DNA of 64,000 nucleotides. It comes from Bdellovibrionota bacterium. Lineage in GTDB: Bacteria > Bdellovibrionota_C > UBA2361 > SZUA-149 > CAZDWZ01. The notes beneath the pieces were generated by a model. The model was not told the DNA's origin. It did no database searches and was given only the letters and a program-made list of their open reading frames with translations. Within the stretch, counting starts at the first letter, position 1. Each line of letters starts with the position of its first letter. A program made the translations under genes and the position numbers. Shown piece by piece: positions 6,189 to 16,850 of the stretch. The DNA is taken from contig JAXLVP010000001.1 of the NCBI GenBank assembly GCA_046328905.1, positions 46,731 through 110,730 of the forward strand, written 5' to 3'.

Positions 6189-7373
6189 ATGTTGGTCTCC
6201 GGTGAGGCGTCAAGCGACGAGCATGGTGCGGCGGTCGTTCGCAGCCTCTTGAAGTCTCGCGCGGATGCACGGGTCTTCGGGATGGGAGGGTCGGCTTTGC
6301 GAGCTGCAGGCATGGAGACGGTGATCGATTCTGAATCGGCTGCCGCCGTCATGGGGCTCACCGAGGTCGTCGGAAGCTTGCGGAAGATCTACGCTGCATA
6401 TCGAGAGCTGATCCGGATCGCGCGCGAACGGAAACCCGATGTCGTCGTGCTTATCGACTTCCCTGATTTCAATCTGCGTCTTGCTCGAGCGCTCAAGCGG
6501 AGCGGGTTTCCGATCTTGTATTTCATCACTCCCCAGCTCTGGGCGTGGAGGAGCGGGCGAATCAAAGCTATTCGGCGCTCGGTGCGGAAGGTCGCTCCGA
6601 TCTTCCCTTTTGAAGAGAGCTATTTCCAACGCTACGGCGTTGATGCGGAGTATGTCGGGCATCCGTTTCTTGACCGCGCGCCGCTTGCATTCGACAGGGG
6701 AGAGTTTTTGCGAAGTCTCGGGCTCGATCCGAATCGCCCAGTGCTCGCGCTCCTCCCGGGAAGTAGGAAGGCCGAAGCGGAAATGCTTCTCCCGCCGCTT
6801 CTTGGCGCCTACGAGCAGCTCCGCAGGGTCCGTCCGAATTTTCAAGCGATCATTCCGGTGGCGTCGACCCTCACGAAAGACTTCTTCGCCGAAAGAACCC
6901 GAGGCGTGCCGGATCTGGCGCTCTCCTCGGGGCAGGCTCGAGAAGTGCTCAGCGTTGCTCGCGCGTCAATCGTAGCGTCTGGAACCGCAACGGTTGAAGC
7001 GGCGCTGGCGGAGAATCCGTTTCTCGTTGTCTATCGCTTATCGCCGGTTTCGCATTTTATCGCGAGAAAGCTCGTCCGCGGAGTGCGGCACTTTGCAATG
7101 CCCAATCTGATAGCCGGAAAGCCTGTAGTGCCCGAGCTCTTGCAGGATGAGGTGACTCCGGAACGTTTGGCGATGGAGCTTGAACGCTTCTTGGGCGATC
7201 CGGCATATGAGAAGCGAATGCGGAAGGATCTGAAGATCGTCGGTGACCGCCTTCGCTTCGGCCGCAAGGCCGAATGCAGTGCCGCTCAGCGGACTGCAGA
7301 GATCATCGTTGAGATCGCGGGCGAGAAATACACTCGCCAATCACGCGTGTACCGCCCGAAGGGAGAGCAATGA
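6189..7373 (+). CDS. lpxB: lipid-A-disaccharide synthase
   Basis: MLVSGEASSDEHGA..., VVLIDFPDFNLRLA...YFITPQLWAWRSGR are classic LpxB motifs. Start placed at ATG 6189 after gaaggga RBS (ORF track starts earlier at 6114). Confidence 0.85.
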   Translation: MLVSGEASSDEHGAAVVRSLLKSRADARVFGMGGSALRAAGMETVIDSESAAAVMGLTEVVGSLRKIYAAYRELIRIARERKPDVVVLIDFPDFNLRLARALKRSGFPILYFITPQLWAWRSGRIKAIRRSVRKVAPIFPFEESYFQRYGVDAEYVGHPFLDRAPLAFDRGEFLRSLGLDPNRPVLALLPGSRKAEAEMLLPPLLGAYEQLRRVRPNFQAIIPVASTLTKDFFAERTRGVPDLALSSGQAREVLSVARASIVASGTATVEAALAENPFLVVYRLSPVSHFIARKLVRGVRHFAMPNLIAGKPVVPELLQDEVTPERLAMELERFLGDPAYEKRMRKDLKIVGDRLRFGRKAECSAAQRTAEIIVEIAGEKYTRQSRVYRPKGEQ

Positions 7374-9214
7374 CGAGAGAGAAAGCCAAGGTCTCCGGGG
7401 TGAATGTCTATCGCCGCTTACTGAGCTATCTCCGGCCGTACCGGGGACAGTTTCTCCTTGCCTTGCTTGCGATGTCGCTTTACGGGGCGACGGACGGTGC
7501 CGTTCCTTACATTCTCAAGCGTGTGCTTGATGACATCTTCGGTGCACGCAATGAAGGAATGTTGTGGAACCTCGTTTATCTGATCCTGGGATTTGCCGTG
7601 ATCAGAGGGCTGTTCGGCTTTCTCGAACGATACTTAATTGCGAGCGTCGGCCTCAGCATCGTTCGGGATTTGCGGAACGAGATCGGGCAACATCTGCTGC
7701 GTCTCAGCACATCGTTTTACTCTCGAGAGACCAGCGGAGCGCTCGTCAGTCGGATGACCAATGACACTTTGCTGGTTCGGTCCGCGTTGACCGATGCAGC
7801 AGGGTCGATACTGCGCGACAGCGTGCGTATTGCGGCGCTGGCGGGAATGGCAATCTATCTCGACCCCGTGCTCGGGCTGATCGCTTTCATCGGTTTCCCG
7901 TTGGGGATCTATCCTGTGATGCGCTTCGGCAAGAAAGTGCGACGGTTTAGCCGGATGGGGCAGGACCGTTTCGGTGGGCTGACAGCGCTTTTGCAGGAGA
8001 TGATTGTCGGTCATCGGGTGGTGCAGGCGTTCGCGCGCGAGGACCACGAATATCAGCGGTTCAAAGAAGAGAACGAGAAGATTACTGACACGTTCAAGCG
8101 GGCGGAGAAATACGGCGCGTTCGCCGGGCCGACCAATGAAGTGCTCGCCAGCTTGGCAATTGCGGCGGTGATTCTGTACGGCGGGTTCAGTGTCATCTCG
8201 GGTGTGCGAACTCAGGGTGATTTCATTGCGTTCATTACATCGATGTTTTTGATGTACGAGCCACTGAAAAAGCTCGGCCGGATGAACACGATCACTCAGG
8301 CCGGTGTAGCCGCGGCAGAGCGGATCTTTGAGCTGCTCGACACCGTTCCGGAGATTCAGGACCTTCCTGGCGCACGTCCGCTTGTCGCGGACCGACCCGA
8401 AATTGAATACCGGCACGTCTCGTTTCAATATCCGAGCACGGAGCGAAGCGGTACTGAAGCAATCGTTTCGCTCGATGATGCGAAGCAGCGCCCCTATGCG
8501 TTGCACGATTTTTCGCTGAAGGTGTCGTCGGGAGAGACCGTCGCGCTCGTAGGGATGTCAGGGGGAGGCAAATCAACCGTCATCAGCCTGCTGCCGCGGT
8601 TCTATGATCCGACCTCCGGGGAAATACGTATTGCCGGCTCGGACATCCGCGAATATACGCTCGCGTCACTGCGAAGCTCCATGTCAATTGTCAATCAGCA
8701 CACGTTCCTTTTCAATCAGACCGTGTACGATAACATCGCGTATGGTGACGGCACCGCTTCGCGTGAGCAGATCATCGAGGCGGCGAAGGCGGCCAATGCT
8801 CATACTTTTATCGAGCGGCTGCCCGAAGGATACGACACCCAGATCGGAGAGCAGGGTCTTCGGCTGTCAGGCGGCGAGCGGGCCCGAATCGCGATCGCTC
8901 GGGCGCTTCTGAAGAATGCCCCAATCCTCATCCTTGACGAAGCGACAGCGAGCCTCGACAGCGAATCGGAACATCTGGTGCAGCGGGCGATCGATCGTCT
9001 GATGGAGAATCGAACAACGCTCGTCATTGCGCATCGATTGTCGACGATTCGTAAGGCGAATCGCATTGCAGTCTTGAAACAGGGTCGCCTGGTCGAGCTC
9101 GGCTCGCACGAGGAGCTGCTTGCTGCGAATGGAGAGTACTCGAAGCTGCATCGTTTGCAGTTTCAGCAGGCGGAGACGGAGTCCCGCCAGTTATCTGCCG
9201 GGGGCGCGGCTTAG
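7370..9214 (+). CDS. msbA: lipid A export ABC transporter permease/ATP-binding protein MsbA-like
   Basis: 614 aa. Six-TM exporter domain followed by Walker A GMSGGGKST, signature LSGGERAR, Walker B ILILDEATASLD. ATGA overlap with lpxB stop. Located between lpxB and waaA. Confidence 0.8.
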   Translation: MTREKAKVSGVNVYRRLLSYLRPYRGQFLLALLAMSLYGATDGAVPYILKRVLDDIFGARNEGMLWNLVYLILGFAVIRGLFGFLERYLIASVGLSIVRDLRNEIGQHLLRLSTSFYSRETSGALVSRMTNDTLLVRSALTDAAGSILRDSVRIAALAGMAIYLDPVLGLIAFIGFPLGIYPVMRFGKKVRRFSRMGQDRFGGLTALLQEMIVGHRVVQAFAREDHEYQRFKEENEKITDTFKRAEKYGAFAGPTNEVLASLAIAAVILYGGFSVISGVRTQGDFIAFITSMFLMYEPLKKLGRMNTITQAGVAAAERIFELLDTVPEIQDLPGARPLVADRPEIEYRHVSFQYPSTERSGTEAIVSLDDAKQRPYALHDFSLKVSSGETVALVGMSGGGKSTVISLLPRFYDPTSGEIRIAGSDIREYTLASLRSSMSIVNQHTFLFNQTVYDNIAYGDGTASREQIIEAAKAANAHTFIERLPEGYDTQIGEQGLRLSGGERARIAIARALLKNAPILILDEATASLDSESEHLVQRAIDRLMENRTTLVIAHRLSTIRKANRIAVLKQGRLVELGSHEELLAANGEYSKLHRLQFQQAETESRQLSAGGAA

Positions 9215-9287
9215 GCGGGCTCGGAATTGTCGATCTGAGGTTTGGGCCGATCAGAAGTTTGGATCGAACGGAGTTGGAGAAGTGGAA

Positions 9288-10592
9288 ATGTTCGTCAGAT
9301 TGTTGAGCAGCGCAGTAGGCACCGTTCTGATTCCGTTTCTCTTTCTTCGAGCAGTGTTCGACGGACGCTGGAGACGTTCGCTCGAAGAACGCCGCGGGCT
9401 CGGCGGATGGCTTGATTCGTCCTGGCAGACACAGGATGTCATCTGGTTTCACGGGGCATCGGTCGGGGAGATCAACGGTCTTGCGCCGCTCCTCTCGGAA
9501 GTCAGGAAGCGCTTTCCCGCCGTGCATATCTTGGTTACCACAACGTCGCTTACCGGTCGGGACGAAGCTCAAAAACGGAGGCTCGGCGATAGCGTCCTGC
9601 TTTTCCCTCTCGATCATCCGAAATACGCGCGCCGGGTCCTGAATCGGGTGAAGCCCAAGGTGGTCGTGCTTGCCGAGACCGAGCTCTGGCCGAACTTCCT
9701 TTTCAGCGCTCGCGAGCTGAACATTCCGGTGCTGCTCGTCAATGGGAGAATCTCTTCTTACAGCTATCCGCAGTACACCCGCGCCCGAGCGTTTTTCCGT
9801 CCTGTTCTGCGCAGCCTTCGCCAAATCCTCGTGCAAACATCGACCGATGCAGAGCGGTTTATCGTGATCGGCGCCGAACCCGAACGGGTAACCGTTTGCG
9901 GTTCGACCAAATACTCTCATAGCAGCGCAACGCCTTCAGCGTCTGAGCGAACGGAATTTGCGGATCTGGTCGGCATTGATCCGAATCGGCCGTGTTTTGT
10001 TGCCGGTTCGGTGAGATCCGGTGAAGACGAGACTGTCATCCGAGCGTATCAGCAGGCGTTGAAGACGGTTCCGGGGCTGCAGATGATTATTGCTCCCCGA
10101 CATCCGGAACGTTTCGAAAAGGTGGCGCGGATGCTTCGAGACCGCGGGATCGCGTATCATCGACGCAGTGATGGGAAGCCTGCTGGACGCAATACTGTCG
10201 TTCTGCTCGATACAATCGGTGAGCTCGCTCGAGCTTATTCGATTGCTTCTTTTGCGTTTGTCGGAGGCTCGCTCGTGGATATCGGCGGCCATAATCCATT
10301 CGAACCCGCAGCGTTTCGCGAGCCGGTTCTCATGGGACCTCACACTTCGAACGTCGCAGACGCGGTCGAAGAGCTTTCCTCCGCGGGAGGGTTGATCCGT
10401 GTCGAGAATGAAACGGAGCTTGTCAGCTCGATAGTTCGGCTCGCAGAGCACCCGGACGAGTGCCTGCTTCGCGGCGCACAGGCCTTCGCGGTGTGGAAGC
10501 GCAGCTCCGGTGCTGTAGAGCGGGTGCTGCCGGTCCTTGAAACGTATCTCACTCCTGCGGCGTCGTTCGCGCCCGTTCAAGCGGCAATGTAG
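9288..10592 (+). CDS. waaA: 3-deoxy-D-manno-octulosonic acid (Kdo) transferase
   Basis: FHGASVGE motif, N-terminal TM, glycosyltransferase N/C domains. Start placed at ATG 9288 (ggagaagtggaaATG); the ORF-track start at 9120 overlaps msbA. Confidence 0.8.
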   Translation: MFVRLLSSAVGTVLIPFLFLRAVFDGRWRRSLEERRGLGGWLDSSWQTQDVIWFHGASVGEINGLAPLLSEVRKRFPAVHILVTTTSLTGRDEAQKRRLGDSVLLFPLDHPKYARRVLNRVKPKVVVLAETELWPNFLFSARELNIPVLLVNGRISSYSYPQYTRARAFFRPVLRSLRQILVQTSTDAERFIVIGAEPERVTVCGSTKYSHSSATPSASERTEFADLVGIDPNRPCFVAGSVRSGEDETVIRAYQQALKTVPGLQMIIAPRHPERFEKVARMLRDRGIAYHRRSDGKPAGRNTVVLLDTIGELARAYSIASFAFVGGSLVDIGGHNPFEPAAFREPVLMGPHTSNVADAVEELSSAGGLIRVENETELVSSIVRLAEHPDECLLRGAQAFAVWKRSSGAVERVLPVLETYLTPAASFAPVQAAM

Positions 10593-10602
10593 GGCTTTGC
10601 AG

Positions 10603-11982
10603 CTAAATCTGTGGGAACTGTAGGTGAGCGAGCTTTTCGGCTGGATCAAATTCCGGATCGAAGGCGAGCTCGACGCCCGCAGAGCGGCTGAGCCGAATCC
10701 GCATGGATTTCACCTCACCGAGCGACTCACCATCTAAGAATCCACTGAGCGGGCGCTTCTTTGGGTCGAGCGAAACAAACTCGACCGTGCTGTCAATTGG
10801 GAGCACAGAAAATTTCCAATCCGGGCGAAACACGTTCGATCCAACGAGCAGGAGCACCGGTGTGTTGAAGGGAATCGGCGCGCCGCCCATCGCTCGCGCG
10901 TAAGCAGCGGAGCCCGATGCCGTTGCGACCAGCACGCCGTCTGAGATGAGCCTGTCGATTCGCAGCTTTCCGTTGACCGAAACGGAGATCCATGCGGATT
11001 GACCCGTGGCTCGCTCCACCCAGGCATCGTTGAAAGCCAACCCGGTGTGAATCTCACCGTCAACCGTCTCGGTTTCCACCCAGAGGAGGGGAAGGTGATG
11101 GAGCACTAAGTCTCTCTCGCCGAGTGACGTTGCCGTATTGCGAGGCTGGTTGAGCAGAAAGCCCGTATGTCCGGCGTTGATACCGTAGAACGGGATTCGT
11201 TTGCGCCAGAACTGACGGATTGAGCGGAGCATCATCCCATCGCCCCCGATGACTACGAACAGGTCGGGGTTTTCAGATGAGCGTTTCGGGAAGTATTTGG
11301 CGAGTTTCAGTGCTTCGGGGTTCCGCTCATCAACGATGAGCTCGACGTTCGGTTTCGGAAAGCGTGTCGTGACCTTCGCGGCAAGCTTGATGCCGCGGTA
11401 AAGATTGTGGCGTTGAATGTACTGAGCGACCTGCTCCGGAAGAAGGTCTTTCACCGGCTGCATGCGAAACAGCTTGTCACGAATCTCCGCGCTGGAACCG
11501 ACCTCTTGCAGCTCGAAAAGGCGATGATTGGGCGGAAGGTCGCTCGGATCGAGATGGTAGCTCGGCCGTGTGAAGACGGCGAAATGCGCCTGATTCCAGA
11601 GATTGCGCCCGTTACGCCAGCTCTGCTGGATCTGGGAAGTACCGTTTGCTCCTCCCGCAACGAGATCTGCGCCCACCACGTGCCATGGAACGCCGTCTTT
11701 CGAGTAGCGCCTGTCTAAGTCTTCTGTGCGAGTGAACTCCTCGCTCTCGAGGTCGAACAGGTCGACAATTACTTTCGGGACGTCGCGAAACGCCATGTCC
11801 ACCATCGCAGCACGATAGACGGACGGAATGTCGTCGGTTCCCGGTTTGTCGGGCCGAGGCCCGCAGGGGACGACGATCAGCTCATCGAAGTGCTTTGCAA
11901 GCTCGCGCGCGATCTCGAGATGGTGGTTCGCGGGCGGGTTGAAGCTCCCTCCGAAAATCGCTCGTTGTTTCTCACCGGGCAT
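10603..11982 (-). CDS. bifunctional nicotinamide/nicotinate mononucleotide adenylyltransferase (eukaryotic-type) / NAD kinase fusion
   Basis: N-terminal AIFGGSFNPPANHHLEIARELAKHF aligns with GSFNPITNMHL of eukaryotic-type NMNAT. C-terminal half has NAD kinase motifs VVIGGDGMMLRS (GGDG) and NDAWVERA (NE/D), plus ATASGSAAY. Confidence 0.7.
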   Translation of the reverse strand: MPGEKQRAIFGGSFNPPANHHLEIARELAKHFDELIVVPCGPRPDKPGTDDIPSVYRAAMVDMAFRDVPKVIVDLFDLESEEFTRTEDLDRRYSKDGVPWHVVGADLVAGGANGTSQIQQSWRNGRNLWNQAHFAVFTRPSYHLDPSDLPPNHRLFELQEVGSSAEIRDKLFRMQPVKDLLPEQVAQYIQRHNLYRGIKLAAKVTTRFPKPNVELIVDERNPEALKLAKYFPKRSSENPDLFVVIGGDGMMLRSIRQFWRKRIPFYGINAGHTGFLLNQPRNTATSLGERDLVLHHLPLLWVETETVDGEIHTGLAFNDAWVERATGQSAWISVSVNGKLRIDRLISDGVLVATASGSAAYARAMGGAPIPFNTPVLLLVGSNVFRPDWKFSVLPIDSTVEFVSLDPKKRPLSGFLDGESLGEVKSMRIRLSRSAGVELAFDPEFDPAEKLAHLQFPQI

Positions 11983-11998
11983 CCGTTTGCTCCTCGTT

Positions 11999-14020
11999 TC
12001 AGCTTCTCGGGTCGGCCTGCGAATCGACGTACCGCTTCAGCTCGTCGAGCTCTCGACGATACCCTCCGGAGAGAATTGGGAACCGGCACCAGGTTTTCGG
12101 GTCGAGGCTTTCACTATCCAGATGAAACGACGGGGCATAACGTTCCCGTTTCCATTGGTTTCTGCACCAGAGAGTGAAAAACCGCGTGATCCAGGTGCAC
12201 AGATCCTGGTTGGAATAGGGGACCTCGGACGCACGAATCCGCTGAAAAATCTCGAGAGGAGAGAGCCGATCGAGCAGCGCTGCCCGCTCGATTTCGTCGA
12301 GAAGCTCATAGGGCATGAGGTCGCCCTCGTCAGTCTGCTTGCTTCCCGGAGGGCGAAGCTCAGCGGTCGGCTGCTGAGCGGTCACATACGAAAGCGCAGG
12401 GAGAGGGGACAACCCGCAAGCTCCGTGCCGTTCCATCCAAACCAGCCACTTCCTGATAAATGCCTTGTCGATTCCGCCGAGCGGACTGATCGAGCCCGCG
12501 GTGTCGCCGTCCATCGTCGAATATCCGACCGCCGCTTCCGACCTGTTGCTCGTGACGAGCAATAACGCGTTCCTGAGGTTGGCAAGCAACCAAACACCCG
12601 GTGCTCGGACCCTTGCTTGAATGTTTTGTAGCGCGAGATCATCACGATTCCAGGCGAGCTCCCGACCAAGCACGTGCTCGATCTTAGAGATGTAGGTGTG
12701 TACGAGATCGCCGATCTCCAGCTCTGCAAATTCCGCTCCGATCGCCCTGCTTAGCTCCCGTGCGGCAGTCCGCGTGACATCAGAGCTGTTCTCTGTCGCT
12801 TGGTAGACGCACATGAGCAGCGCACGGACGATGTCCGCATCGGTGCCGTCTTCTGACAGTGTTGGAGTCGGGGGAAGCTTCGCGAGGAATGCTTCTTTCC
12901 CGATTTCTCGAACGCCGAGTGTCACCATCGTCGCCACCAAAACAGCGGTAGTCGACGAGTCTGCACCACCGCTCAGTGAAATTACGAAACCACTCGAACG
13001 GCTTTTCCTCAAGTAGTCATAGAGTGCAAGCGCTTCTGCCCGGAGGAACTCTTCATTCTTGATTTCGTCGCTCCGTTCCCATTCTGCAAGCGCGAGGAGG
13101 TTTTGCTTCGGGACGGGCTTTGGAAAAGTGAAGGGGACCGCTACGCACTCGTCGCCGGGGCCTCCCAACTGCGGGCTGAAGCTTGCCGGCTCAGAGCGGC
13201 GTGAGCGCGAGGCGTCGATGTCGATGAGAGCGCTCGTGAGCACGACATCCCGAAATGAGAATCGCGGTCCGACAGCTTCCAATTCACCGGAGCTGGCGAT
13301 GAGGGCGCCGCCATCGTAAATCGCTCGTCCGCTCTCATTGCCCAAGTGATTGGCGTAAACGTAGCTTAGTCCAAACGCACGAGAACCTTCGAGAACGAAC
13401 CGCTTTCGTGTCTCGAATTTGCCGAACGCAAAATGGCTGGCGCTGGGGTTGAGCAGGATGTCGACTCCTTTCAGCGCGAGCGACGATCCCGGTCGATTGG
13501 CGACCCAGGCGTCTTCGCAAATTTCGAAGCCGACTCGAACTCCACCGCAATCGAAGTAGATATCCCCGCACGGAATCTTCTCACCATCGAGCTCGATGGT
13601 CGTGCGATACTCGGCGGGCCATGCCTTGAACCATCGAGGCTCGTAGTAGATGCCGCCTCCGGCCAGAAATTGCTTTGCGACGAACCCTCGCACCTTGCCG
13701 TCCGCGACAAGACAAGCGGTGTTGAAGAGCGTGCCCTGCACCCTGAGCGGCAATCCGATTGACGCAATGATGCCCTTGGTCTCGGGAAGCACCTCGCGAA
13801 GAACCGCGAGGGAGGTGTATTCGACGGACGGGTGGTAAAACGCGTCTTCACACCCGTATCCGCTGATGACGAGCTCCGGAAGGCAGACGACACTGACGCT
13901 CTGTGCCCTTGCGGCGCGCAGTGCTTCGATAATCCGCTGCTTATTGCCCTCCCAATCAAGGGGCGTTTGATTCAAGACCGCAGCTGCGACCTTCACCAGC
14001 TTCATCGCTCTGTGCTCCAA
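11999..14020 (-). CDS. nadE: glutamine-dependent NAD+ synthetase (N-terminal CN-hydrolase domain + NAD synthetase domain)
   Basis: N-terminal nitrilase-like domain (catalytic region VVCLPEL...E...C). C-terminal PP-loop SLSGGADSS. 673 aa; alternative start at M6 (14005). Confidence 0.85.
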   Translation of the reverse strand: MEHRAMKLVKVAAAVLNQTPLDWEGNKQRIIEALRAARAQSVSVVCLPELVISGYGCEDAFYHPSVEYTSLAVLREVLPETKGIIASIGLPLRVQGTLFNTACLVADGKVRGFVAKQFLAGGGIYYEPRWFKAWPAEYRTTIELDGEKIPCGDIYFDCGGVRVGFEICEDAWVANRPGSSLALKGVDILLNPSASHFAFGKFETRKRFVLEGSRAFGLSYVYANHLGNESGRAIYDGGALIASSGELEAVGPRFSFRDVVLTSALIDIDASRSRRSEPASFSPQLGGPGDECVAVPFTFPKPVPKQNLLALAEWERSDEIKNEEFLRAEALALYDYLRKSRSSGFVISLSGGADSSTTAVLVATMVTLGVREIGKEAFLAKLPPTPTLSEDGTDADIVRALLMCVYQATENSSDVTRTAARELSRAIGAEFAELEIGDLVHTYISKIEHVLGRELAWNRDDLALQNIQARVRAPGVWLLANLRNALLLVTSNRSEAAVGYSTMDGDTAGSISPLGGIDKAFIRKWLVWMERHGACGLSPLPALSYVTAQQPTAELRPPGSKQTDEGDLMPYELLDEIERAALLDRLSPLEIFQRIRASEVPYSNQDLCTWITRFFTLWCRNQWKRERYAPSFHLDSESLDPKTWCRFPILSGGYRRELDELKRYVDSQADPRS

Positions 14021-14209
14021 CGGTCGAGAGACATATCAAATAAAATTTCCACGCAGCCGAGCTCCACGTTTGTCCACCTGCCTAAGTATTTGATTTTACC
14101 ATAGTTTGGCGCTAAACGCTTGTTGTGAGCCGGTTGATTCCCGCGGTTTGCGGGTGTATATTTCCACCGTTTTAATCACTTCATTCCCGCGAAGTCTATA
14201 ACTCCAGTT

Positions 14210-14674
14210 ATGAAAGGCAACGAACAGAGCAATGTCCATCACGCGTCGGTCGATTGGGTGAAGAGCGACCCTCAAATCCCGGCTCTTAAGGAGCGCGTGA
14301 TTGCGCACGCGGATTATCTCAGCTTGGTGATAGCGACCTCCCGCCAAAAGATTGTGGCGATTGAGGCTCAGATGAGCTCGAAGCTCGGCTCACTCTCTCC
14401 CGAAGGCAGTAGGGCGTTACTTCAGGTGCGCAGGATTATCAGCGCGGTGGAGGGACGGTTGGACCGTTTGACCGCGGCTTTGAACGAGAGCACCGACACC
14501 GCAATCTACGGCGCCGTGAAGTTGACATTGCAAGAGATCGCGGTTCCGCACGATGCGGTGCACGCGCTCATCACTGAAGCTCCACCGCCGCCGATCAATC
14601 CGCAGACGCTGCAGCATACGTTGAGCTCGCTGTTTGCGAAGATGAAATTCACCCGAGCGGAACGCTCGTTCTGA
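14210..14674 (+). CDS. hypothetical protein
   Basis: 154 aa ORF in an otherwise empty interval, convergent on rel. No recognisable motif, weak RBS. Confidence 0.35.
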   Translation: MKGNEQSNVHHASVDWVKSDPQIPALKERVIAHADYLSLVIATSRQKIVAIEAQMSSKLGSLSPEGSRALLQVRRIISAVEGRLDRLTAALNESTDTAIYGAVKLTLQEIAVPHDAVHALITEAPPPPINPQTLQHTLSSLFAKMKFTRAERSF

Positions 14675-14675
14675 G

Positions 14676-16850
14676 TTACTCGTCCGAGTATCGATGTCGT
14701 TCGATGCGAATGACACCGTCGACCTTCTCGATGGCGCGCGTGATCGTGTCGAGCTGCCCGCTGCTCTCGATATTTACTTCGAAGCTCGAGAGGGCTTTGC
14801 CGTGGGGTGTCGAATTCACCTGAGCGTTCACAATATTCGCGCCTGCGTTTGAGATACACTGGGTGAGCGCTGCCAAGATTCCAACCCGATCGGCTGAGAG
14901 AACGTGAAGCCGAATGCGGCGTGTGGTCTTTACGGTGTCGTCCCACGTAACTGGAATCAGGCGCCGAGGGTCGAAGCTGAGGGTTTGCGGACAGCCTCGA
15001 GTATGAATCGCAACTCCGCGGCCCCGAGTCACATAGCCGACAAGCTCGTTTCCAGGCAGCGGCTCGCAACATTTCGCGAAGCGGAACACGACGTCGTCGT
15101 ATCCGTTGACTTTGACCCCCGCTTTCTCACGGAAGACCTTGGCTGCCCTTTGGAATATCCGCTGCAGCGCCGAGTCTTCCTTCTCGAGCTTCGAGTCGAG
15201 GTCGGATTCTTCAGGGACAAGCAGTGTGATCACCTGTTTCGTTGAGATCTTTCCGTAGCCGATCTCAGCGAGCAGAATATCGATCTCCTTCAGGCCGAGC
15301 TCATCAGCGGCTTTCTGCAAGCGGCCGTCTTTGAGCACCGAGCTGTAGCTCAGCTTCACCTGGCGGAGGTCCTTGGTCATCAACTCTTTTCCGACCGTGA
15401 TGGAACGCTCTCGTTCAGCGGCTTTGAGAAAGCTCCTGATGCGCTGTTTCGCCTTATTGGTTGCGACGAGGTTGAGCCAGTCTTTGCTCGGCGACTGCGT
15501 TTTCGATGTAATGATCTCGACGGTGTCACCATTCTGCAGTCGATAGGAGAGGCCTACCTGCTGTCCGTTTACCCGTGCTCCGACACAATGGTGTCCGACC
15601 TCCGAGTGAATGTAGTACGCGAAATCGATTGGTGTGGATGTGCTTGCGAGCGCGATGAGGTCCCCTTTCGGCGAAAAGACAAAGACCTCTTGCGAGAAGA
15701 GATCCTCTTTGACCGTCGACAGGAACTCAATCGGATCTTTCAGCGTCTGTTCGGATTCGACGAGATCCCGAAGCCACGTGAACTGAAACCCCTCCCGAGC
15801 GATAGCTTTCTTACCGTCAGCAGTTTCTTTGTAAATCCAGTGTGCGGCGATTCCCCGCTCGGCGACATCGTGCATCTCCTGGGTTCGGATCTGAATTTCT
15901 ATCCGCGCACCCTTCGGTCCGATGACCGTCGTATGGAGGGACTGGTAATTGTTCGGCTTCGGCATCGCGATGTAGTCTTTGAAGCGTCCGGGAATGGGCT
16001 TCCAAGCGGCATGCACGAGTCCGAGCGCGGTATAGCAGTCCATCAATGTCGGAACGATGATGCGGAATGCAATGAGGTCGTAGATCTCGCTGAAATCCAG
16101 GCCTTCGCGCTCCATTTTTTCGTAAATGGAATAGAAGTGCTTCGGCCGGCCGGAGACGTCACCGGTAATATTGTTCTGTGCAAGCTCTCGAGTAATAAGC
16201 TGGGTGACGTCCTTGATGTACGCCTCACGCTCTCGCTTGCTTTCGCTCACGTGTTTTTTGATGCTTTCGTACGCAGCCGGTTTGAGGAAGCGGAGGCTGA
16301 GGTCCTCGAGCTCGGACTTCATCCAATAGATGCCCAGGCGGTGGCAGAGCGGGGCATAGATGTCGAGAGTTTCTTGCGCGATTCTGGTTCGGCGTCCCTC
16401 GGAGAGAAACTCGAGCGTGCGCATGTTGTGGAGGCGATCGCACAGCTTGATCAGAAGCACGCGGATATCTCTCGCCATCGCGAGAAGCATTTTGCGGAAG
16501 TTCTCAGCTTGCGCCTCTGCCCGTGAGCTGAAATTGACCTGGCTGAGCTTCGTGACTCCGTCGACGAGCTCGGCGATCTCCTTTCCGAAGTCCGCGCTGA
16601 TCTGGGTGAGCGAAACGGCAGTGTCTTCGACCGTGTCATGGAGGAGGGCGGTCGCAACGGACTGGACATCGAGGCGGAGCTTGGTAACGAGAAAGGCGAC
16701 TTCCTGAACGTGAGTTACGTAAGGCTCACCGGAAGCCCGGGTTTGGCCCTGGTGCTTCTCACGTACAAAGGCGTACGCTTTGCGGACAAGCTCGACGTCC
16801 GCATTCGGCAGGTAGTCCTGTACTGCGCCTATGATCTCTTGTAGTGTCAC
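14676..16850 (-). CDS. rel: bifunctional (p)ppGpp synthetase/hydrolase RelA/SpoT family
   Basis: 724 aa. HD hydrolase (HD motif in ...LLHDTVEDT), synthetase domain, TGS and C-terminal ACT. Downstream of rpoZ as in the canonical rpoZ-spoT arrangement. Confidence 0.9.
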   Translation of the reverse strand: MTLQEIIGAVQDYLPNADVELVRKAYAFVREKHQGQTRASGEPYVTHVQEVAFLVTKLRLDVQSVATALLHDTVEDTAVSLTQISADFGKEIAELVDGVTKLSQVNFSSRAEAQAENFRKMLLAMARDIRVLLIKLCDRLHNMRTLEFLSEGRRTRIAQETLDIYAPLCHRLGIYWMKSELEDLSLRFLKPAAYESIKKHVSESKREREAYIKDVTQLITRELAQNNITGDVSGRPKHFYSIYEKMEREGLDFSEIYDLIAFRIIVPTLMDCYTALGLVHAAWKPIPGRFKDYIAMPKPNNYQSLHTTVIGPKGARIEIQIRTQEMHDVAERGIAAHWIYKETADGKKAIAREGFQFTWLRDLVESEQTLKDPIEFLSTVKEDLFSQEVFVFSPKGDLIALASTSTPIDFAYYIHSEVGHHCVGARVNGQQVGLSYRLQNGDTVEIITSKTQSPSKDWLNLVATNKAKQRIRSFLKAAERERSITVGKELMTKDLRQVKLSYSSVLKDGRLQKAADELGLKEIDILLAEIGYGKISTKQVITLLVPEESDLDSKLEKEDSALQRIFQRAAKVFREKAGVKVNGYDDVVFRFAKCCEPLPGNELVGYVTRGRGVAIHTRGCPQTLSFDPRRLIPVTWDDTVKTTRRIRLHVLSADRVGILAALTQCISNAGANIVNAQVNSTPHGKALSSFEVNIESSGQLDTITRAIEKVDGVIRIERHRYSDE

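Follow-up and report, generated by a model that had tools for sequence, protein, structure and literature searches.

Does a single bacterial polypeptide combine the adenylyltransferase of NAD synthesis with an NAD kinase, and, if so, to which family does the adenylyltransferase belong? This question is raised by a 64,000-nucleotide (nt) stretch of DNA (the window) from a metagenome-assembled genome (MAG) of a Bdellovibrionota bacterium (GenBank assembly GCA_046328905.1, contig JAXLVP010000001.1, positions 46,731 to 110,730), in which a gene for a protein of 459 amino acids (aa) lies immediately downstream of nadE. An initial annotation, made from the sequence alone, described this protein as a eukaryotic-type NMNAT joined to a complete NAD kinase. 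Domain scans with Pfam and NCBIfam, together with structure matches, bore out the union of an adenylyltransferase and a complete NAD kinase in one polypeptide, but placed the adenylyltransferase with bacterial NadD. The protein is probably a bifunctional enzyme of NAD(P) biosynthesis, with NadE covering the intermediate step. The parts of the gene are as follows.

10603 to 11982, minus strand: the fusion gene, 459 aa, NadD-like adenylyltransferase plus NAD kinase (ATG start, uninterrupted open reading frame (ORF), domain matches).
11392 to 11982, minus strand: the N-terminal domain (N-domain), aa 1-197, by its TIGR00482, PDB and fold matches a divergent NadD-family nucleotidyltransferase of what we call the GxHH clade.
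11920 to 11952, minus strand: the ATP-motif variant GGSFNPPANHH, aa 11-21, counterpart of (H/T)xGH (aligned with GGTFDPIHNGH of NadD).
10603 to 11391, minus strand: the C-terminal domain, aa 198-459 plus the stop codon, by its PRK04761, PDB and Foldseek matches a complete short-form NAD kinase.
11236 to 11247, minus strand: the GGDG motif of the kinase, aa 246-249 (read in the sequence; invariant in the family alignment).

The fusion is not peculiar to the window, and more than 900 protein clusters carry it. A homologue search of 5.8 billion proteins returned 926 matches to the fusion protein, with full-length homologues of about 455-465 aa in abundance, and the best 120 of them are all about 450-490 aa long, nearly all with both Pfam domains. 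The survey of other genomes that the initial annotation had called for, in which each species was represented by one genome, located the fusion in at least 265 of these representatives, which come from Planctomycetota, Verrucomicrobiota, Acidobacteriota, Myxococcota/'Deltaproteobacteria', Sumerlaeota and others. Two cultured isolates, Brevifollis gellanilyticus (NBRC 108608) and Prosthecobacter fluviatilis (KACC 12649), carry the fusion as an intact ORF, 459 and 460 aa long. When 24 fusion members from several phyla were aligned (48-83% identity), H21, PCGPRPDK, T86, W122, R139 and GSSxxIR with R168 are invariant or nearly so in the NadD half, as are GGDG, NxGHxGFLLN, AFNDAWVER and DGxLVATAxGSxxYxxxMG in the kinase half. 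The conserved LYRG of the NadD-type C-terminus runs directly into the first kinase strand.

These data bear on one alternative, that adjacent nadD and nadK genes were merged by an assembly or frameshift error; the initial annotation, too, had considered two genes parted by an undetected frameshift or stop. The window does come from a MAG, and frameshifts are present in a related MAG (locus L081, below). However, the ORF is continuous, the same junction recurs in hundreds of independent full-length homologues, the ORFs of the cultured isolates are intact, and the passage from LYRG to the kinase strand leaves no room for a stop and a restart. We therefore rejected the artefact, to which we give practically no chance.

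Automated pipelines already label one or both domains; the fusion is an apparently uncharacterised combination of two known enzyme families. The exact 459-aa protein carries the NCBI name 'MAG: NAD(+)/NADH kinase [Bdellovibrionota bacterium]', and some homologues bear the JGI label 'NAD kinase/nicotinic acid mononucleotide adenylyltransferase'. Among the NCBIfam matches there was no curated model for the NadD and NadK pair, and full-text literature searches, which took in the NrtR regulon paper, found no description of a NadD-NadK fusion, in agreement with the initial annotation, which knew of no described family with this architecture.

We turn to the family of the N-domain. Pfam CTP_transf_like matched aa 9-151 of the fusion protein (6.5e-14), and NCBIfam TIGR00482 (NadD) matched aa 9-195 (2e-25) with 89.9 bits against a cutoff of 112.45; the PRK00071-type NadD models all scored below their cutoffs. 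A single-sequence search of the PDB with the N-domain gave Mycobacterium abscessus NadD at 1.5e-16 and Bacillus subtilis NadD at 3.6e-15, and human NMNAT1 at 7e-6 over a 34-residue stretch. When a profile of 18 N-domain sequences was used, B. subtilis NadD (1kam) was matched at full length at 4e-19, together with 17 other NadD-type sequences, and human NMNAT1 and NMNAT3 were matched over partial stretches at about 4e-6 to 9e-6. A model of the isolated N-domain (predicted local distance difference test, pLDDT, 91.2) was compared with known structures by Foldseek. Ranks 1-47 were all NadD-type, with a TM-score (TMt) of up to 0.84, and all of these were bacterial with the sole exception of the Plasmodium enzyme 5llt. 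The first animal NMNAT came at rank 48 with a TMt of 0.70, against 0.83-0.84 for the NadD-type structures. The C-terminal ISSTxxR motif is present as GSSAEIR at aa 162-168, with R168 invariant.

One comparison had appeared to favor the eukaryotic enzyme. Among five sequences, human NMNAT1 scored 27.9 bits with the N-domain, about 10 bits above three canonical NadDs. This apparent preference vanished once all PDB NadDs were scored, since human NMNAT1 scores 13-46 bits with them and 27.9 bits is an ordinary value within that range. The profile E-values, the fold ranks and the bit-score range thus led us to reject a eukaryotic-type NMNAT at the domain level. Judged by sequence profile and modeled fold, the N-domain is a divergent member of the bacterial NadD family and falls in a distinct NadD-like clade. 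The initial annotation had also grouped archaeal NMNAT with the eukaryotic enzyme, which is incorrect: archaeal NadM is a separate family (TIGR01527).

The C-terminal half was assigned in the same way. Pfam NAD_kinase (PF01513) matched aa 226-284 (4.4e-9; 37.2 bits against a gathering threshold of 25.5), and NAD_kinase_C (PF20143) matched aa 332-423 (6.7e-4) with 19.8 bits, below its threshold of 23.7. The short NAD kinase model PRK04761 of NCBIfam matched aa 225-456 at 7.7e-49, covering profile positions 23-255 (233 of 257), with a score of 166.2 bits, below the equivalog cutoff of 211. NAD kinases in the PDB matched this half at 2e-12, and Foldseek aligned it with Listeria monocytogenes NADK1 over about 265 columns (TMt 0.76-0.78), a complete two-domain fold. 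The GGDG motif and the NE/D-type motif, AFNDAWVER at aa 316-324, are present as initially annotated, as is a Gly-rich GSxxY stretch, SDGVLVATASGSAAYARAMGG, at aa 347-367, and all three are invariant in the family alignment. By its motifs and model, this half is a complete, divergent short-form NAD kinase. A full-length AlphaFold2 model of the fusion (pLDDT 85.8; predicted TM-score, pTM, 0.86) is consistent, by its pTM, with a fixed arrangement of both domains.

We then considered the ATP motif, on which the eukaryotic reading had largely been based. The motif stretch of the fusion protein is GGSFNPPANHHL at aa 11-22. Relative to Escherichia coli NadD, H16 is replaced by A18, G18 by H20, and H19 is kept as H21; H20 and H21 are invariant in the 24 aligned fusions. 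Human NMNAT1, with T21-N-M23-H24, likewise has neither the first His nor the Gly, so that in this respect the likeness to the eukaryotic motif that had been pointed out holds. FNP, however, is also seen together with a canonical HxGH inside the bacterial clade.

When 1.84 billion cluster representatives were searched exhaustively by HMMER with the N-domain as the query, 202 of them matched at E<=1e-30 and 461 at E<=1e-10. The best 150 clade representatives comprised 77 NadK fusions, 60 short proteins (about 191-208 aa) and 13 of other length, and among these 150 the motif is [G/A]xHH in about 70%, TxxH in about 8% and HxxH in about 8%. Fused and short members alike keep the last His, PCGxRPDK, the Trp, the Arg and SSxxIR. 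As far as the alignments go, the unusual ATP motif is a trait of the whole bacterial clade and not of the window gene alone. In a neighbor-joining tree the fused and standalone N-domains are interleaved, with at least 21 state changes; short forms on contigs below 1.5 kb may be truncated fusions, and we therefore left the tree uninterpreted.

The genes around the fusion were examined for what they say about its role. The features upstream of the fusion gene are as follows.

11983 to 11998, minus strand: the spacer between nadE and the fusion gene, 16 nt, with the Shine-Dalgarno sequence GAGGAG at 11990-11995 (read in the sequence).
11999 to 14020, minus strand: glutamine-dependent NadE with CN-hydrolase and NAD synthase domains (domain matches; likely true start at ATG 14005).
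14021 to 14209, no strand assigned: the divergent intergenic region 5' of nadE, presumed promoter region of the nadE-fusion unit.

The NadE ORF has 673 aa when counted from TTG 14020; ATG 14005 (MKLVKV), which gives 668 aa and has a GGAG 9 nt upstream of it, is the more likely start. Both domains of a glutamine-dependent NadE were found, CN_hydrolase (PF00795, 1.9e-20) and NAD_synthase (PF02540, 4.6e-30), and the translation shows the motifs CLPEL, EICED and SGGADSS. PRK02628 matched at 7e-75 with 252 bits, below its cutoff of 473. From the NadE stop to the fusion start the sequence reads TGA-aacGAGGAGcaaacgg-ATG; the two genes stand in tight tandem and are translated separately. The claim that a two-domain NadE lies immediately upstream is confirmed, and its gene is probably co-transcribed with the fusion gene. 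We found no candidate NAD+ riboswitch or operator 5' of nadE: 14021-14209 gave no Rfam match at E<=1, no inverted repeat and no sigma-70-like site on the minus strand. No second nadD or nadK, and no pncA, pncB, nrtR or NAMPT gene, occurs within the window. On the other side, an msbA-like ABC transporter gene (7370-9214, plus strand) and the Kdo transferase gene waaA (9120-10592, plus strand) converge on the fusion gene; the stops of waaA and of the fusion gene are 10 nt apart, with no terminator-like hairpin detected in between.

We asked whether this arrangement is conserved. The gene nadE adjoins the fusion in 7 of 80 loci, and no neighbor is conserved family-wide among the 80; a family-wide nadE-fusion operon was therefore rejected. 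The initial proposal that the last three steps to NADP lie in one transcription unit is probably right for the lineage of the window, where a close relative with 75% identity (L082) has the same arrangement, and fails for the family as a whole. L082 has the order rpoZ-relA/spoT-nadE-fusion followed by waaA and msbA, as in the window. The window has in addition a 154-aa ORF without a Pfam match (14210-14674, plus strand) between relA/spoT (14676-16850, minus strand) and nadE; this ORF is missing from L082, where the relA stop abuts the nadE start, and it looks like a lineage-specific insertion that parted nadE from the relA operon.

Other loci place the fusion among genes of NAD salvage. In the closest species representative (L001, 584-7374), six genes on the same strand read pncB-nadE-nrtR-pncA-NUDIX-fusion, a candidate NrtR regulon that takes in the NAD kinase. 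In about 15 of the 80 loci, from several phyla, pncA, pncB, nrtR, nudix or nadE stands beside the fusion, and wherever NAD genes are clustered near it they belong to the Preiss-Handler (deamidated) route. Standalone clade members, here nadD*, are found in similar company: pncA-nadD*-x-pncB-rSAM-nadE in L083 (5155-11909), with nadD* of 201 aa, and nrtR-pncA-pncB-x-nadE-nadD* in L085 (105-6597), with nadD* of 198 aa. No other annotated adenylyltransferase occurs within about 6 kb in either locus. Both operons also include an ORF without annotation, of 186 aa in L083 and of 291 aa in L085; the gene between pncB and nadE in L083 encodes a radical SAM (rSAM) protein. A second fusion architecture was also observed, in which the variant NadD forms the C-terminus of NadE (P0197, 509 aa, and P0200, 836 aa); these fusions include single-domain and glutamine-dependent forms of NadE.

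One locus stands apart. In a Pirellulales MAG (L081, 4549-8276, GCA_049840575.1) a NAMPT gene, split in two, lies directly upstream of an ORF whose 633-aa product comprises an extension of 90 aa, a canonical NadD that has HVGH and exceeds the TIGR00482 cutoff, the variant NadD, and the beginning of NadK, the remainder of which is in the next ORF. Frameshifts are evident in the assembly. The apparent triple protein of canonical NadD, variant NadD and NadK (P0169) was not trusted, as it comes from this frameshifted MAG.

With the context at hand, we asked whether the N-domain is an enzyme at all. It might instead be a regulatory module of the NAD kinase that senses a nucleotide (NaAD, that is, nicotinic acid adenine dinucleotide, NAD or ATP), its catalysis lost or changed, with a separate canonical NadD encoded elsewhere. 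The degenerate HxGH, the scores under the NadD equivalog cutoffs, and the canonical NadD alongside the fusion in L081 would fit this view. However, the last His, K46, T86, W122, R139 and SSxxIR are near-invariant across phyla; the family can do without the first His and the Gly, as human NMNAT shows; and the standalone members are the sole annotated adenylyltransferases in salvage operons that look complete. We give this view very little credence as a whole, and a purely regulatory N-domain is unlikely because the catalytic residues are conserved.

The function that we favor, and consider probable, is the bifunctional one, in three steps. The N-domain (aa 1-197) would most likely convert nicotinic acid mononucleotide (NaMN) and ATP to NaAD, and may also accept nicotinamide mononucleotide (NMN). 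NadE, separately translated from the gene 16 nt upstream, would amidate NaAD to NAD, and the C-domain (aa ~200-459) would phosphorylate NAD to NADP. The two genes would form one unit driven from 14021-14209. The fusion would link the filling of the NAD pool to the formation of NADP from it at a fixed 1:1 stoichiometry, possibly on an oligomeric kinase core to which the NadD domains would be attached rigidly, since the connection is only about 10 residues long. The occurrence of the clade in pncA-pncB-nadE-nrtR salvage operons, standalone or fused to NadE, argues for a NaMN to NaAD activity.

Several points weigh against this bifunctional NaMN route. Its logic is unusual for a fusion, in that the two fused activities would be non-consecutive. 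Neither half reaches any curated NCBIfam equivalog cutoff, so that the assignment is to families and not to equivalogs. In place of the HxGH of NadD, with its first His and its Gly, the protein has AxHH and most of the clade has GxHH. The variant domain is not always the sole adenylyltransferase, as the canonical NadD-like domain of L081 indicates. Promoter and terminator scans of the locus gave nothing above chance, and the scan for a separate nadD or nadK, which found none, covered the 64-kb window. The pyridine pocket is altered as well. In E. coli NadD, H45 and W117 stack on the pyridine ring and Y118 forms a hydrogen bond with the carboxyl or amide group, and the engineered variant Y84V/Y118D has its preference moved toward NMN (PMC8035330). 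Of the canonical pocket residues (H45, Y84, W117, Y118) the Trp alone is retained, as W122; H45 is D45, Y84 is R85 and Y118 is R123, the last position being variable in the clade and often Glu. Since these positions are tied to the preference between NaMN and NMN, a preference for NaMN is not assured, and substrate preference cannot be read from the clade sequence.

The same pocket invites another explanation: the N-domain may prefer NMN or have dual specificity, and one polypeptide would then carry out the consecutive steps NMN to NAD to NADP. NMN would be supplied by salvage, or by NadE, which would then act before the N-domain and serve as an NMN synthetase on NaMN. The order with NadE first and NMNAT second is that of the Francisella type. 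Fused enzymes more commonly catalyse consecutive steps, which counts in favor of this explanation. The pncA-pncB-nadE context and the NadE-NadD* fusions fit it equally well, because an order of NadE then NMNAT would give identical gene clusters. NAMPT adjoins the fusion in L081, and HxGH has lost its first His and its Gly, as in the TNMH of the dual-specificity eukaryotic NMNAT. The pocket changes (no Tyr at the Y84 and Y118 positions, often Glu after the Trp, and Asp for H45) resemble the direction taken by the NMN-preferring Y84V/Y118D enzyme (PMC8035330). On the other hand, NAMPT was found near the fusion in L081 only and in none of the other 80 loci, and the canonical NadD-like domain of L081 could serve it. 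The NadE of the window is two-domain and glutamine-dependent, unlike the single-domain Francisella type. The N-domain is overall closest to the NaMN-specific bacterial NadDs, and R85 (Arg in 54 of 77 fusions) could as well bind the carboxylate of nicotinate. We regard an NMN-preferring or dual-specificity N-domain as possible, and distinctly less probable than the NaMN route. The fuller version, in which the GxHH clade as such has switched to NMN or dual specificity and the fusion makes NADP from NMN with the upstream NadE as NMN synthetase, seems doubtful to us; if it were true, a Francisella-like order of NAD synthesis would be widespread in Planctomycetota, Verrucomicrobiota, Acidobacteriota and Bdellovibrionota.

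How does the fusion compare with known systems? The N-domain has the fold of bacterial NadD (TIGR00482/COG1057; 1kam, 1kaq and E. coli 1k4k), with a TMt of 0.83 and a root mean square deviation of 2.7 Å to 1kaq. The two have in common the last His, K46, T86, the stacking Trp (W122), R139 and SSxxIR, and the operon partners of bacterial NadD, namely pncA, pncB, nadE and nrtR, are also those of the clade. Unlike bacterial NadD, the N-domain has [G/A]xHH, the altered pocket, about 8 inserted residues (GGxxGxSxIQ) ahead of the Trp, and the fusion to NAD kinase. Eukaryotic NMNAT1-3 belong to the same superfamily and share with the N-domain the fold, GSFNP and an HxGH motif without its first His and Gly (TNMH against ANHH), but their overall similarity to it is much weaker, and the long insertion of NMNAT1 (aa ~105-150) is missing from it. 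The kinase half has the same motifs and fold as NadK/PpnK (PF01513 and PF20143; PRK04761), to which the fusion adds the N-terminal NadD-like domain. Other proteins also carry two NAD activities on one chain, with other partner domains: NadR (NMNAT and ribosylnicotinamide kinase) and NadM-Nudix, as well as the Methanocaldococcus jannaschii NADP phosphatase/NAD kinase (PRK14076) and NadD-HD (PRK07152), the last two giving weak partial matches to the fusion.

NadD, NadE and NadK are essential enzymes and have been studied as antibacterial drug targets; to our knowledge, this work has been done almost wholly in Proteobacteria, Firmicutes and Actinobacteria. The fusion is not a new kind of biochemistry or a new system. 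Rather, the locus draws attention to a NadD-like clade that is widespread and apparently uncharacterised; both its ATP motif and its pyridine pocket are rebuilt, and in several under-studied phyla it is joined to NAD kinase. The clade could reveal whether NaMN can be adenylylated without HxGH and the H45/Y84/Y118 pocket, and the fusion could reveal whether the size of the NAD pool is coupled to the formation of NADP.

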